From an uncultured Gammaproteobacteria bacterium (lineage in GTDB: Bacteria; Pseudomonadota; Gammaproteobacteria; JACCXJ01), in assembly GCA_963764725.1 (NCBI GenBank), contig CAVXTM010000001.1:320001-384000 (forward strand): a DNA stretch of 64,000 bases. Reading direction: 5' to 3'. The notes under the pieces are model-generated. The model searched no databases. It saw only the letters and a list, made by a program, of their open reading frames with translations, and was not told the origin of the DNA. A program made the translations under genes and the position numbers. Of this stretch, positions 17,502 to 38,759 are shown in pieces. Numbering within the stretch: the stretch's first letter is position 1; every line of letters starts with the position of its first letter.

Positions 17502-17739
17502 GAAAACATTCACGACCAGCGTCTGAAAGTCGCTTCTTGAACAGGAACTTATATTTTCGAGGCGCAACGCCGGAACGGCCAGTCTTACGGCGCGTAGAGA
17601 TGTTTCCAAATGCTGCGATTTGCTTAGATAATTTGTCTAGATAATTAATATCGGTGTTAGATTACCGTGTGGGCACTAAAGTAGGCATCAGCAACGCCAT
17701 GCCCGTAAGACGCTCTGGACACAAGGGATTGAGAAAGCA

Positions 17740-18150
17740 GGAGTCAACCTGTAAGCCGGGTTCTGTCCGCCGCGGCACAAAAGGGCCTCAGCGGGGCAGT
17801 CATTTATCTTGGATGCATGTCACCATGCACCTCTAGCGACCTACCCGGGAGCCCACGCGGGCCACGTGTCGTCACCCCTCGTGGGGGGCTCGCTCCCCTA
17901 TTTGGCCTTGCTCCAGGTGGGGTTTACCCTGCCACCGGCGTTAGCCGGCGCGGTGCGCTCTTACCGCACCTTTTCACCCTTGCCGCCCCGGCCGGCCGGA
18001 CCGTTACCGGCTGCCCGCCGGGGGTTGGCGGTCTTTTCTCTGTGGCACTTTCCGTGAGTTCGCACTCCCCAGGCGTTACCTGGCACCTTGCCCTTGAAGC
18101 CCGGACTTTCCTCTGCATCACATCGACACAGCGACTACCCGGTTGACTCC
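17740..18150 (-). ncRNA. rnpB: RNase P RNA, class A
   Basis: Minus strand has GAGGAAAGTCCGGGCT and ACAGAACCCGGCTTA. P1 is closed by GGAGTCAACC/GGTTGACTCC. Canonical position between rsmI and mraZ. Confidence 0.97.
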
Positions 18151-34471: not shown

Positions 34472-35116
34472 TTAGAGCCAATAGGCCGTGGTGGTCATCA
34501 CTTTCGAGACGGCCGTCATGAGCATTTTGATGACTTCAGGCAGATCCGCGGCGCCGGTCTCGATGGCGACCGTGGCATGGTGTGCTTCATCCCTTTTCAT
34601 CCGCTGCAGGATCGCGCGGCTGCGGATGTCGGCTGGCGGTAACTTGTGTAGGTGCTCGTCCAAGTGCCGAACGACCTGGCGCTCGGTCTCGGCGATGAAT
34701 CCGAGGCTCCACCGGTCACCCGCGATACCGGCGATGGCACCGATCATAAACGACCCAAAATACCAAAACGGATTCAAAAAGCTCGTGCGTCCCCCAAGCT
34801 CACGCAGGCGATCTTCGCACCAATAGAGGTGATCGTTTTCTTCGCTGGCCGATTTCGCCATCGTCTCCCGTACTAGCGGATCGCGGGCAGCAAGCGACTG
34901 GCCATGGTACAAGGCCTGTGCAGCCACCTCGCCCGCGTGGTTTATGCGCATGAGTCCTTCCGAGCGGAGGCGGTGTTCTTTCGAGGAATCGATCTCGCGG
35001 AGGTCGGTGCATGGCACCGGCGCCCCCGAGCTATCCTGAGCGCTGAAGACGGTTCTAATCCCCTTATCGAGATTGATCAGGACGCTATCGAGGGAAGAGT
35101 ATATGCGGCCTTCCAT
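34472..35116 (-). CDS. coq7: Demethoxyubiquinone hydroxylase Coq7
   Basis: MRINHAGEVAAQALY, ENDH, ETERQVVRHL, DEAHH di-iron ligands. Confidence 0.95.
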   Translation of the reverse strand: MEGRIYSSLDSVLINLDKGIRTVFSAQDSSGAPVPCTDLREIDSSKEHRLRSEGLMRINHAGEVAAQALYHGQSLAARDPLVRETMAKSASEENDHLYWCEDRLRELGGRTSFLNPFWYFGSFMIGAIAGIAGDRWSLGFIAETERQVVRHLDEHLHKLPPADIRSRAILQRMKRDEAHHATVAIETGAADLPEVIKMLMTAVSKVMTTTAYWL

Positions 35117-35190
35117 TATTATCGAGAGCGGATGAGGCTCGCGGGGATTCTAACATAGACATCTCACGGTCTGGCATTCCGCGATTGATG

Positions 35191-35512
35191 AAAAACCCTT
35201 GACGCGTCGGCCGGGCAAGAGACGTTGCCCGAATCCGATGTATTGCAGCCGCATCAAGGGTCAGGAGGAAAGTTTAGGACGCGTTGACATTCGTGTGCGA
35301 GAACAACGACGCAGGAGGTAAAGCGCGAAGCAAGCGACAAAACCACGCGTGCCTATTCCCCCCCACCGATCGCAAGGCATTCAACGAACCTTTACCCTTG
35401 CGGGGCGTGCCCCCTGTGACCTCAACGGGGCTGCTAAACGGCGCCTCTCCATTGCCACTTGCTTCGCATAACCATCGCTGTTCGACCAACACGACTAAAT
35501 GAATGTCAACGC
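35191..35512 (-). ncRNA. Putative novel structured non-coding RNA
   Basis: 12-bp perfect closing helix, nested helices whose mismatches become G.U only on the minus strand, TAGTCT -10 ending 7 nt upstream, and a 3' hairpin plus U5. See findings. Confidence 0.6.
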
Positions 35513-35642
35513 AAGGTAAGACTACGCGCGGCCGGTTACTAAAGTCTGTCGGTGGGAGTTCGAATTTCGCGTAGGTCAACGTATGGTAGGGGTCCGCGTT
35601 TGTCCTACGCCGCGCCCTTAATACGAAACCAAGGAAACACAG

Positions 35643-36275
35643 CTACGCGACCAAGCCGTGCTTCACGCAATAATAAGTTAACTCGGCGCTGGTCCGTAGA
35701 TGCAGTTTTTCAAGAATGCGCGCCCGGTAAGTGCTGACGGTCTTGACGCTGAGATGCATCAGTTCCGCGATCTCGCTTACGGTATTTCCAGCGGCGATCA
35801 GGCACATAACCCGGTACTCCTGTTGCGACAAGCGCTCGTGGGGCGCTGCTTCAACACCACCGGAGATCTGGGTAACAAGCCGTTCCGCCAAAGATTGCGT
35901 GACATAGCGGCCCCCAGCGAGAACCCGCTTAACTGCCGTCACCAACTCCTCGGGAGCCCGATCTTTGGTGAGATAGCCCGCGGCGCCGGCTTTGAGCGCG
36001 CGCACCGCAAACTGCTCCTCGGCGTGCATGCTGAGCACAAACACCGGGACCGCCGGGAGCGCCCGCTTGACCCGCACCAGGGTTTCCAATCCGTCACCTC
36101 CCGGCATGGATACGTCGAGCAGCACCAGATCCCAGAGCCCGGTTCGCACGAGCTGTTCGACCTCCAGGCCGGTGGCGGCCTCCCCAACATCTAAATCCGG
36201 GAACGCCTCCCGCAGCAGGTCACGGATCCCGCGACGCATCAAAGGATGGTCATCGGCGATCAGAAACTTTAGCAT
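35643..36275 (-). CDS. NarL/UvrY-family response regulator (REC + LuxR HTH)
   Basis: IADDH, LLDVSMP, YLTK, LSVKTVSTYRARILEK. Confidence 0.94.
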   Translation of the reverse strand: MLKFLIADDHPLMRRGIRDLLREAFPDLDVGEAATGLEVEQLVRTGLWDLVLLDVSMPGGDGLETLVRVKRALPAVPVFVLSMHAEEQFAVRALKAGAAGYLTKDRAPEELVTAVKRVLAGGRYVTQSLAERLVTQISGGVEAAPHERLSQQEYRVMCLIAAGNTVSEIAELMHLSVKTVSTYRARILEKLHLRTSAELTYYCVKHGLVA

Positions 36276-36373: not shown

Positions 36374-37735
36374 CTAAGGCGAGGGTCTAATTGGAAAGGT
36401 AACGGTTAATGTCGTCCCTGGCGGACCGCCGATGGTTAGCATCCCGCCGAGCTCCCGGGCCCGCTCCTCGATCCCGAGCAGCCCGAGTGAGCCCCGGGGC
36501 TCGCGTTCAGAGGGTTCAATCCCGCGCCCGTCGTCCCGGACCTCGAGTCGCGCAATGCCCTGTGAGTGGTCCATCTGCAGCCAGACGCCTCGCGCCTGGG
36601 CATGGCGGGCGACGTTGGTTAGGGCTTCCTGGGCAATGCGATAGAGCGCGGTGGCTTGGGCGGGAGTCAAATCGACCGACGCATCCAAGCTCGGCTCGAC
36701 GCCGATCCCCGTGCGTTCGTTGAACTGCCGGAGCAGGAGATCGAGGGCCGGAACTAGGCCGAGGTTATCGAGCACCGCCGGTCGCAGCTCGGTGGCGACG
36801 CGGCGCACCAGGCTCACGGTCGCGGCGACGTGCCGGGACATGGCGTTGAGACGTTCCGCTATCCGTTGGTCACTGGCCTCGTGATCGTCGACCCGGCGCT
36901 GTATCCAGGCGATGTCCATCTTGATCCCGGTCAGCGACTGTCCAAGCTGGTCGTGGAGTTCGCGCGCGATTTGAGTACGTTCTTCCTCGCGGCTGAGATT
37001 GAGATACTGCACGAGCTTGCGCAGTTGCGCCCGAGATGCGGCGAGCGTCCGCTGGGTGCGCCGCCGCTCGACGATATCGAGGGCGATGCATACCGCGCCC
37101 TGCAGGCTGCCGTCGCGAGCGCGCAAGGGAGCAGCCGAGAACAATACCGGGATGCGTTGTCCATCTCGGCGATAATAATAGGTCTCCTGTTCGGTTTCGC
37201 CGGTAAACAGAAACTCCAGTGTGAGCGCGGTATCGTTTAAGCCCAGGACGCGCTGAATCGAAGAGCCCGTCAAATCGCGCTCCGGATAGCCCAAGAGCGA
37301 GCAGCTTGCGGGATTGACCGTTTCGATGATGCCCGTGGGCGAGACTACGATCAGCGACTCGGGCAGGGAGCGGATCACATTTTCGAGATAAGTCCGGGAG
37401 AGGGTGTTGCGTTCGAGAACCTCGGCCATCTGATTAAACGCGATAGCCAACCGCCCGAGCTCGTCGTCGGACTCCGGTAGGACCCGTCGTGACAAGTCGC
37501 CGGCTGCCAGCGCCTGCATCGCGGCGAGGAGCGAGCGTACCGGCCGGGTCACGCCGCGCAGGGTCAGGAATACAACGGCAACGCCGGCCAGCAACGCGCA
37601 GAGGTGCAGGCCCGAACCCAGCGCGTTGAACTCACGGGCGCGCCAGTAGACGATAAGGTCGCTCATCAGGAATAGGGCGATGATGGCGCCCATTCCGAGC
37701 GCCAGTCTTCTTACGATGGTCCAACGCATCGTCAT
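36374..37735 (-). CDS. Sensor histidine kinase (2 TM, HAMP, PAS, HisKA_3, HATPase)
   Basis: DELGRLAIAFNQM (HAMP), IARELHDQLGQ, QEALTNVARHA, DDGRG. Confidence 0.93.
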   Translation of the reverse strand: MTMRWTIVRRLALGMGAIIALFLMSDLIVYWRAREFNALGSGLHLCALLAGVAVVFLTLRGVTRPVRSLLAAMQALAAGDLSRRVLPESDDELGRLAIAFNQMAEVLERNTLSRTYLENVIRSLPESLIVVSPTGIIETVNPASCSLLGYPERDLTGSSIQRVLGLNDTALTLEFLFTGETEQETYYYRRDGQRIPVLFSAAPLRARDGSLQGAVCIALDIVERRRTQRTLAASRAQLRKLVQYLNLSREEERTQIARELHDQLGQSLTGIKMDIAWIQRRVDDHEASDQRIAERLNAMSRHVAATVSLVRRVATELRPAVLDNLGLVPALDLLLRQFNERTGIGVEPSLDASVDLTPAQATALYRIAQEALTNVARHAQARGVWLQMDHSQGIARLEVRDDGRGIEPSEREPRGSLGLLGIEERARELGGMLTIGGPPGTTLTVTFPIRPSP

Positions 37736-38685: not shown

Positions 38686-38759
38686 TGGGGGATCGTCTAG
38701 CGGTAGGACTACGGACTCTGACTCCGTCAACCTAGGTTCGAATCCTAGTCCCCCAGCCA
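38686..38759 (+). tRNA. tRNA-Gln (anticodon CTG)
   Basis: Cloverleaf TGGGGGA...TCCCCCA GCCA, anticodon loop CT CTG AC, T-arm GGTTCGAATCC, encoded CCA. Confidence 0.96.

Follow-up and report, generated by a model that had tools for sequence, protein, structure and literature searches.

A predicted structured non-coding RNA gene beside a NarL-type regulator gene in one genus of uncultured Gammaproteobacteria

6S RNA binds RNA polymerase holoenzyme, and Ms1 is a longer 6S-like RNA of mycobacteria. In Pseudomonas, the small RNA (sRNA) genes for CrcZ and NrsZ lie directly behind the two-component genes that activate them, cbrAB and ntrBC, respectively. A locus that resembles both kinds of system in part lies at positions 35191–35512 of a 64,000-nt stretch of DNA (hereafter the window) from an uncultured gammaproteobacterium of the GTDB lineage JACCXJ01 (GenBank assembly GCA_963764725.1, contig CAVXTM010000001.1, positions 320,001 to 384,000 of the forward strand). 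It occupies the gap between the genes for a NarL-type response regulator and coq7. We conclude that this 322-nt element is probably an independently transcribed gene on the minus strand for a trans-acting, stable and highly structured non-coding RNA (ncRNA). The RNA is a new family of a known general kind that no Rfam family matches.

The RNA is similar to 6S RNA and Ms1 in that it is a stable RNA seen in RNA libraries, with a long interrupted double-stranded rod whose 5' end pairs with its 3' end; the closing helix is also where the apparent ends of the RNA fall. However, 6S RNA is about 185 nt long and has one large central bubble, whereas the main domain of this RNA is 232 nt long and is predicted to contain a branched multiloop with three hairpins. 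No match to 6S RNA (RF00013) is found on the element at gathering or E ≤ 10, and a canonical 6S RNA lies at C18:165442–165626 (73.7 bits) of the same genome. As with CrcZ and NrsZ, the RNA gene lies immediately downstream of a histidine kinase–response regulator pair in the same orientation, and it has promoter-like and terminator-like sites of its own; here the linkage to the pair survives rearrangement. CrcZ and NrsZ have sigma-54 promoters and NtrC-type regulators, whereas the promoter-like site here is sigma-70-like and the regulator is of the NarL/LuxR type. Furthermore, CrcZ carries repeated A-rich motifs and NrsZ repeated modules, whereas no repeated motif is seen in this RNA.

The consensus structure of the minus strand is a 40-bp interrupted rod of three helices (P1, P2 and P3) that closes a branched core and is followed by a 20-nt linker and a terminator hairpin (Table 1). 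The two arms of P1, GCGTTGACATTC (35281–35292) and GAATGTCAACGC (35501–35512), are exact reverse complements. The inner helices GAACAACGA/TCGCTGTTC and GCGAAGCAAGCGACAA/TTGCCACTTGCTTCGC contain one and two A-C mismatches on the plus strand, respectively, all of which become G·U pairs on the minus strand, and the sub-hairpins CGCAAGG/CCTTGCG and GCCCC/GGGGC are also found in the window sequence. All helices, hairpins and motifs that an initial annotation, made from the letters alone, had described were confirmed at their positions. Alignment A4 consists of 12 distinct full-length sequences, five of which come from unpublished genomes (G001, G002, G005, G007 and G008), and the covariation counts given below depend on these. 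Of the 12 P1 pairs, 11 are invariant, and pairing is complete wherever both positions of a cell hold a letter; in one metagenome sequence, M151, the 3' arm is shortened by a 9-nt deletion. P2 is paired in 99.2% of cells, and its three variable pairs change on one side only and retain G·U, G-C or U-A. P3 is paired in 98% of cells, with six pairs varying on one side and one two-sided change from A-U to G-C. The small 5-bp hairpin at 35486–35498 is paired in 95% of cells and shows G-C/G-U changes. In the core, hairpin B is 100% paired over nine pairs, one U-A to A-U exchange among them, and the purine-rich junction GGAGAGG (35444–35450) is identical in all 12 homologues. An outer helix proposed by RNAalifold (35530–35540 with 35170–35185) was dropped, since its covariation is almost nil and the coq7 promoter region is the better reading of the downstream block.

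The whole element folds to −139.9 kcal/mol on the minus strand (z −4.1, 1 of 100 shuffles as good) and to −116.8 kcal/mol on the plus strand (z −2.9), and the P1-closed domain alone (35281–35512) reaches −100.5 kcal/mol (z −4.05, none of 200 shuffles as good). The minimum free energy of the minus strand is lower than that of the plus strand in all 12 homologues, by 14–34 kcal/mol, and the alignment fold gives −98.4 for the minus strand versus −74.8 for the plus strand. In the refined structure of 89 pairs, 97.9% of 1057 stem cells hold standard pairs, compared with 37–48% in slid controls. Neither the covariation score nor the percentage paired is matched in any of 500 shuffles; with the unrefined structure, two of 500 reach the observed level. 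Variable columns make up 45 of 174 paired positions versus 79 of 181 unpaired ones. Of the one-sided stem changes, 27 keep pairing on the minus strand and 19 break it, whereas an expectation drawn from the substitution spectrum of unpaired columns is a kept fraction of 0.34 (binomial p = 4.6e-4). When the same changes are read on the plus strand, 17 are kept and 29 are broken. Both the stability against shuffled controls and the choice of the minus strand made in the initial annotation are thus upheld. The sequences are close kin and the tests draw on the alignment that gave the structure, so that they amount to moderate support for it.

A small protein-coding gene was rejected as an explanation of the element. 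Gap runs are mostly not multiples of three (93 of 113), variable columns are distributed over the codon phases as 19/25/29 and hence without codon periodicity, open frames on either strand shift between species, and the two open reading frames (ORFs) of the element have no Pfam match.

The claim that the element is transcribed agrees with contigs assembled from RNA libraries. A search for the 451-nt query 35150–35600 listed 20 runs from 12 studies, 17 of them recorded as RNA, each with a fraction of 0.19–0.45 of the sampled words. None of these 20 runs holds at least half of the words, as would be expected if only the P1-closed domain is present. Four runs from four studies were aligned to 34800–36000, and in all four the contigs lie inside the element, wholly within 35234–35502, at depths of 3–30. 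Contigs of two studies stop at 35283 and 35284, which is the base of P1, with no loose end, and this is a weak hint. In none of the four runs is coq7 or the promoter region covered by a contig, nor is the regulator gene at high identity, although such a lack of cover is no evidence. Short exact contigs inside the P1-closed domain in independent studies are the expected product of a stable, abundant small RNA. They suggest that the 232-nt P1-closed domain is the accumulating species and that longer forms reach into the terminator, as does contig X8.

The RNA gene has promoter-like and terminator-like ends of its own, as proposed initially. The −10 element TAGTCT (35524–35519) is separated by 6–7 nt from the first base of P1 at 35512. 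It keeps the pattern TAnnCT in all 12 homologues while its middle varies (TAGTCT, TAATCT, TAGGCT and TACTCT). No constraint is seen on the bases that lead from it to P1, and invariance sets in exactly with the first base of that helix. From this pattern, transcription probably starts near 35512. The stretch of linker and terminator (35186–35280), in which the terminator hairpin is the sole structure, folds to −37.2 kcal/mol (z −5.0, none of 200 shuffles as good). Two of the 19 hairpin pairs have changed on both sides, and a run of four to six U residues follows the hairpin in all 12 homologues. A simple terminator scan, whose rule allows only shorter loops, misses it. Of the two ends originally predicted, 35512 is favoured by the onset of invariance, whereas the 3' end near 35191 is uncertain, since in two studies the contigs extend no further than the base of P1.

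The 130 nt that extend from the RNA up to the regulator stop codon are conserved. They include a 17-nt block, AACTCCCACCGACAGAC (35544–35560), which 11 of 12 sequences share without change and which has two altered bases in G001. They also include an inverted repeat of 11 nt, with arms 20 nt apart (35569–35579 with 35600–35610), that reads GCGTAGGACAA ... TTGACCTACGC on the minus strand; this repeat could be a binding site of the regulator or a hairpin of the regulator mRNA, at its 3' end. The hexamer GCGTAG recurs at the −10 element and at the stop codon of the regulator gene. Sigma-32-like and sigma-E-like readings of the invariant upstream block were unconvincing by eye.

Table 1 Coordinates of the RNA, its parts, its neighbours and the RNA-library contigs in the window
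Feature	Position	Strand	Remarks
Main domain closed by helix P1	35281..35512	−	232 nt; part covered by RNA-library contigs
P1 5' arm, GCGUUGACAUUC	35501..35512	−	pairs with 35281–35292, 12 bp
Small 5-bp hairpin in P1/P2 internal loop	35486..35498	−	RNAalifold helix 2
P2 5' arm	35473..35483	−	pairs with 35301–35311, 11 bp
P3 5' arm	35452..35468	−	pairs with 35324–35340, 17 bp
Branched core	35341..35451	−	GGAGAGG, P4, hairpin A, CCCC/GGGG helix, hairpin B
P4, core	35442–35446 with 35345–35349	−	consensus: 4-bp junction helix
Hairpin A, core	35409–35434	−	
CCCC/GGGG helix, core	35402–35405 with 35359–35362	−	
Hairpin B, core	35372–35395	−	
Motif 1, CUUUACCUCCUG	35312..35323	−	3' side of P2/P3 internal loop
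Motif 2, CUUUCCUCCUG	35262..35272	−	linker between P1 and terminator
Long hairpin and U-run, intrinsic-terminator-like 3' element	35191..35260	−	hairpin 35196–35260, U5 35191–35195
Promoter-like site	35519..35547	−	inferred; −35 AGACTT/CAGACN 35542–35547, spacer 17–18 nt, −10 TAGTCT 35519–35524
Conserved upstream region, candidate activator sites	35543..35610	−	17-nt block and 11-nt inverted repeat
Intergenic gap holding the RNA			526 bp; between two minus-strand genes (response regulator upstream, coq7 downstream)
Response regulator, NarL-type (receiver and GerE/LuxR-type DNA-binding domain)	35643..36275	−	Pfam; directly upstream of RNA
Histidine kinase (HAMP-PAS-HisKA_3-HATPase)	36374..37735	−	Pfam; partner of regulator
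coq7	34472..35116	−	Pfam COQ7; downstream neighbour in commonest arrangement
Extended −10-like site of coq7, TGTTAGAAT (TGnTAGAAT)	35147–35155	−	read from sequence; inferred promoter
Contig X2	35283–35502		220 nt; 100% identity
Contig X4	35284–35478		195 nt; 100% identity
Contig X5	35317–35486		170 nt; 100% identity
Contig X8	35234–35488		305 nt; relative, 5 mismatches, 4 gap positions, sequencing adapters at both ends

The regulator gene adjoins the full-length RNA in every locus examined, namely the window, eight genus relatives and five metagenome contigs. coq7 follows the RNA in 10 distinct loci. Three loci, those of G005, G008 and metagenome contig L151, have no coq7 downstream, and in each of them the RNA, intact and with its terminator, stands beside the regulator gene; in G008 the next genes are rfbB and rfbA, with coq7 on the same contig at a distance of about 25 kb. 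Because the RNA is intact without coq7 in three lineages, it cannot be an obligate leader of coq7. The description of the rearrangement comes from G005 and G008, both unpublished. In these two genomes, only the 3' two-thirds of the RNA is found before coq7, and this 5'-truncated remnant cannot form P1–P3. It is joined to an inverted piece with the last 34 codons of the regulator gene, the promoter region and about the first 35 nt of the RNA, and the inverted promoter piece faces a gene for an RTX-repeat protein. G003 (L013 1501–1641, contig C223) contains a second copy of the promoter module with nucleotides 1 to about 42 of the RNA in front of a 134-residue ORF with a hydrophobic N-terminus and no Pfam match. 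The promoter module and the first 35–42 nt of the RNA have thus been copied before other genes in three relatives, so that the upstream region behaves as a portable promoter module.

Several side observations concern these loci. In G008 the loci concerned lie on C8 at about 8.6–9 kb and about 34 kb, and the intervening block of about 25 kb starts with rfbB/rfbA and ends with the RTX-repeat gene; the truncated RNA copy and the inverted promoter piece are located at its far junction. The partial RNA copy of G008 is nearly identical to its full copy (gene conversion or recent duplication), and that of G005 (L003, L011) resembles another lineage. In metagenome contigs L154 and L155 the regulator matches fall in two frames (residues 1–33 and 31–210), which suggests a frameshift or an assembly error; G006, which has the same RNA core, has an intact regulator gene.

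The element is present in all eight genomes of the genus by BLAST and covariance model, a count that also depends on the five unpublished genomes; the copy of G004 is cut by a contig end. The relatives include Chromatiales bacterium USCg_Taylor and Chromatiales bacterium Frasassi PCtopBin12. Covariance model R1, built on the main domain, scores 236–296 bits on 15 full-length loci and 262.3 bits on the window. In a search of 15 genomes of the order, BLAST and the covariance model find no element in six genomes of two sibling genera, the remainder of the order examined; these negatives are based on the unpublished genomes G009, G010, G012 and G014. The covariance model finds none outside the genus among 150 genomes sampled across the class. 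A pattern scan of metagenomes yields five further loci or contigs, four of them with new sequences, and a 16-mer scan of genome contigs yields 120 loci, of which 118 are chance and two are real, the word being too short. At E ≤ 1e-30, five genomes of sibling genera show no match to the kinase, and among 400 scored genomes of the class the kinase matches outside the genus are only 30–46% identical and mostly of partial length. In the sibling genera, coq7 is 57–61% identical and has no regulator gene beside it. These distributions are suggestive of one genus-specific module of kinase, regulator and RNA, as far as can be judged from genomes that are kin. The element occupies one place in the 4.2-Mb genome of the window, and no relative carries more than one full copy in addition to partial ones. 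A miniature inverted-repeat transposable element (MITE) or other dispersed repeat is ruled out by this single copy.

No known family accounts for the RNA, in line with the initial annotation. Rfam, searched with permissive filters over 35050–35700 of the window and in four relatives, gives no match on the element at gathering or E ≤ 10, and no paper joining upland-soil-cluster or USC-gamma bacteria with sRNA, ncRNA or 6S RNA was found in the texts covered by a full-text search, which were seen in part. Transfer-messenger RNA (tmRNA) has no match on the element, and a standard tmRNA (229–232 bits) is encoded elsewhere in six relatives that carry the RNA (G001, G002, G003, G004, G006 and G008). 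ARAGORN and RF00023 above cut-off find no tmRNA in the genome of the window, which is 96.9% complete, whereas seven of the eight genus relatives have one above cut-off (six full-length and a partial one in G007); the missing gene is probably an assembly gap. Signal recognition particle (SRP) RNA was rejected because it is encoded elsewhere in the genome. Genes for bacterial Y RNA usually have a Ro/TROVE protein gene nearby, and no Ro/TROVE protein (PF05731) match is found in the 96.9%-complete genome, so that a Y RNA was rejected as well. A CsrA sponge of the CsrB/Rsm type was also rejected, since the 322 nt contain three GGA triplets by eye, which is about chance, and only AUGGA at 35448–35452 is conserved. 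CsrB, RsmY and RsmZ are controlled by the NarL-family regulators GacA/UvrY, the family to which the adjacent receiver–GerE protein belongs, and CsrA is encoded in the genome. However, this RNA has only one conserved A-N-GGA, the neighbouring kinase does not have the GacS-type hybrid form, and Rfam gives no match. The large orphan structured RNAs IMES, GOLLD, HEARO, OLE and raiA, which came to light in metagenomes and metatranscriptomes, are similarly unassigned, strongly structured and conspicuous in environmental RNA data. However, none of their Rfam models matches this RNA, which is smaller than most of them and, in the genomes searched, confined to one genus.

For the ncRNA gene that we consider probable, the following mechanism may be proposed. 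Transcription would start near 35512 from a weak sigma-70-like promoter (CAGACN, 17–18 nt, TAnnCT) that would need an activator, and would end at the long terminator hairpin and U-run (35260–35191). The 232-nt P1-closed domain would then accumulate as a 40-bp interrupted rod with a branched, sequence-invariant core. The kinase and the NarL-type regulator may control the RNA promoter, and the RNA would act in trans by protein binding via its invariant core junctions rather than by seed pairing. Promoter control by the adjacent regulator is proposed tentatively on the basis of an adjacency that survives rearrangement, the conserved upstream module and the Pseudomonas precedent. Protein binding through the invariant core, for which the position of the invariance and the lack of a conserved seed argue, is if anything a slightly more tentative proposal. 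It is doubtful that the full chain holds, in which the RNA would be the output of a genus-specific two-component system whose phosphorylated NarL-type regulator switches on a very abundant, nuclease-resistant RNA that sequesters a global protein. Such a protein would be RNA polymerase, a chaperone or a ribosomal component, and the exposed GGAGAGG would suit the last.

Several observations weigh against these proposals. The identity of the RNA domain to the window (0.77–0.96) is not above that of flanking third codon positions (0.78–0.95), and its range overlaps that of other intergenic regions (0.73–0.96), a comparison that includes only regions with valid coordinates and excludes the kinase–regulator spacer rows of G005 and G008. 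Sequence conservation was therefore rejected as a sign of selection, being no higher than the synonymous-site or intergenic background; because the genus is shallow and the identity is at the neutral level, conservation alone is no argument for function. Covariation is thin, with 4 of 89 pairs changed on both sides and some changes common to related sequences, and since the structure itself was derived from this alignment, the counts lean towards it. The promoter matches the consensus weakly, with a poor −35 (CAGACN), and is not called by a consensus scan, although a weak promoter missed by a scan is expected if it depends on an activator. A terminator scan finds no terminator between the regulator gene and the RNA, so that read-through and processing are possible. 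The case for regulator control is one of adjacency, and the upstream motifs have no further copy in the genome of the window within 3/18 or 7/48 mismatches. No repeated binding motif is seen in the RNA. The library data are assembled contigs, which give no strand, true ends or level, and DNA carry-over in RNA libraries is possible.

The initial annotation had emphasized two exposed anti-Shine-Dalgarno motifs, CUUU(A)CCUCCUG, and a base-pairing sRNA would use these CU-rich segments to pair with the ribosome-binding sites of its targets. Their location in a predicted internal loop and in the single-stranded linker of the window sequence fits this explanation, as do the terminator and U-run, which form the usual 3' end of Hfq-type sRNAs. 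However, the motifs are among the least conserved parts of the RNA and do not stand as a general feature: CCUCC is retained in motif 1 in four of 12 homologues, in motif 2 in seven and in both in three, and several species read CAGCGUG or UUGUCCUG instead. The invariant parts are the core junctions and not the CU-rich loops, neither of the two exact contigs extending to the 3' side of the domain (X2 and X4) includes motif 2, and the RNA is large and rod-like, unlike typical seed-pairing sRNAs. Pairing of ribosome-binding sites through these motifs is therefore weakly supported and a base-pairing sRNA improbable; a protein decoy, the other role suggested at the outset, would fit better than an anti-Shine-Dalgarno mechanism. 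A cis-acting leader, in which a riboswitch-like sensor or attenuator lets the terminator gate read-through into coq7-hsp20, or into rfbBA in G008, is likewise improbable. Genes of the same orientation follow the terminator in the loci examined, the core segment CCGCAAGGGU is a candidate anti-terminator that could pair with the 5' half of the terminator, and prematurely terminated leaders also accumulate in RNA libraries. However, the downstream gene is not constant (coq7 is missing in G005, G008 and L151, and rfbB takes its place in G008), coq7 has a promoter-like site of its own after the terminator, and the putative anti-terminator segment is altered in G005 without a matching change in the terminator. 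Distribution in one genus with no Rfam aptamer match also speaks against a leader, as does, as a weak hint, the fact that exact contigs end at the base of P1 and not at the terminator.

It is quite improbable that the RNA has no promoter of its own and is cut from the 3' untranslated region (3'-UTR) of the kinase–regulator operon transcript, with RNases trimming it to the P1-closed domain. The spacer of 130 nt is conserved, and a scan from the regulator stop codon to the RNA gave no terminator-like site, which would allow such an origin; the contigs end on either side of P1, as they would if the RNA were trimmed back to a stable helix. Against this, TAnnCT is fixed with a free middle, which is the pattern of a working hexamer, and lies at the right distance from P1. 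Moreover, the spacer and the first 35–42 nt of the RNA have been copied without a complete regulator gene, only 3' remnants of it being present, as would be expected of a promoter module. Finally, the locus is a rearrangement breakpoint in three lineages, partial copies are present in G003, G005 and G008, and sequence identity is not above the neutral background, all of which would suit an inverted repeat that matters at the DNA level, as a recombination or rearrangement site or a decaying remnant, and has no RNA function. This is highly improbable, because the A-C mismatches of the arms are G·U on one strand only in all 12 sequences, stem changes are biased towards retaining RNA pairs, the RNA libraries of four studies yield short contigs that are confined to the domain, and the rearrangement breakpoints lie inside the RNA and not at the ends of the repeat.

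In the window, hsp20 is the next gene after coq7, and the wider neighbourhood consists of the housekeeping genes rplM-rpsI, rpe, trpE, murA, hisG and mlaC. The extended −10-like site of coq7 lies downstream of the RNA terminator and is retained before coq7 in the rearranged genomes too. hsp20 is absent in G006 (L004), and only fragments of it are found in G001 (L008). Downstream of hsp20 in G007 (L007 2207–2333, plus strand), sub-threshold Rfam matches to SorX (26.4 bits) and Bp1_781 (25.1 bits) are probably due to a terminator-like hairpin. The only matches at the Rfam gathering level in the window are a class A RNase P RNA (17736–18150, minus strand, 295.5 bits) and a tRNA gene (38686–38756, plus strand).

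The genome of the window contains at least two full-length genes of the PmoA/AmoA family (C18:234387–235094 and C16:488849–489547) and a third locus split into two pieces (C3:34673–35361). They are consistent with a methane or ammonia oxidiser and fit the kinship with metagenome-assembled genomes (MAGs) of USC-gamma, uncultured bacteria that are credited with atmospheric methane oxidation in upland soils. An RNA that is specific to one genus and found in RNA libraries of soil, rhizosphere and sediment would be a new family to characterise, with its 232-nt rod and branched core, and it could serve as a sensitive marker of host activity in metatranscriptomes. Should the adjacent two-component system have the RNA as its output, the RNA would offer an entry to the regulation of organisms that cannot yet be cultivated. 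If the full chain described above holds, the RNA would be a functional analogue of 6S RNA, Ms1 or CrcZ that sets the slow-growth physiology of atmospheric-methane oxidisers, and the promoter module copied before genes of secreted proteins in relatives would define a regulon.

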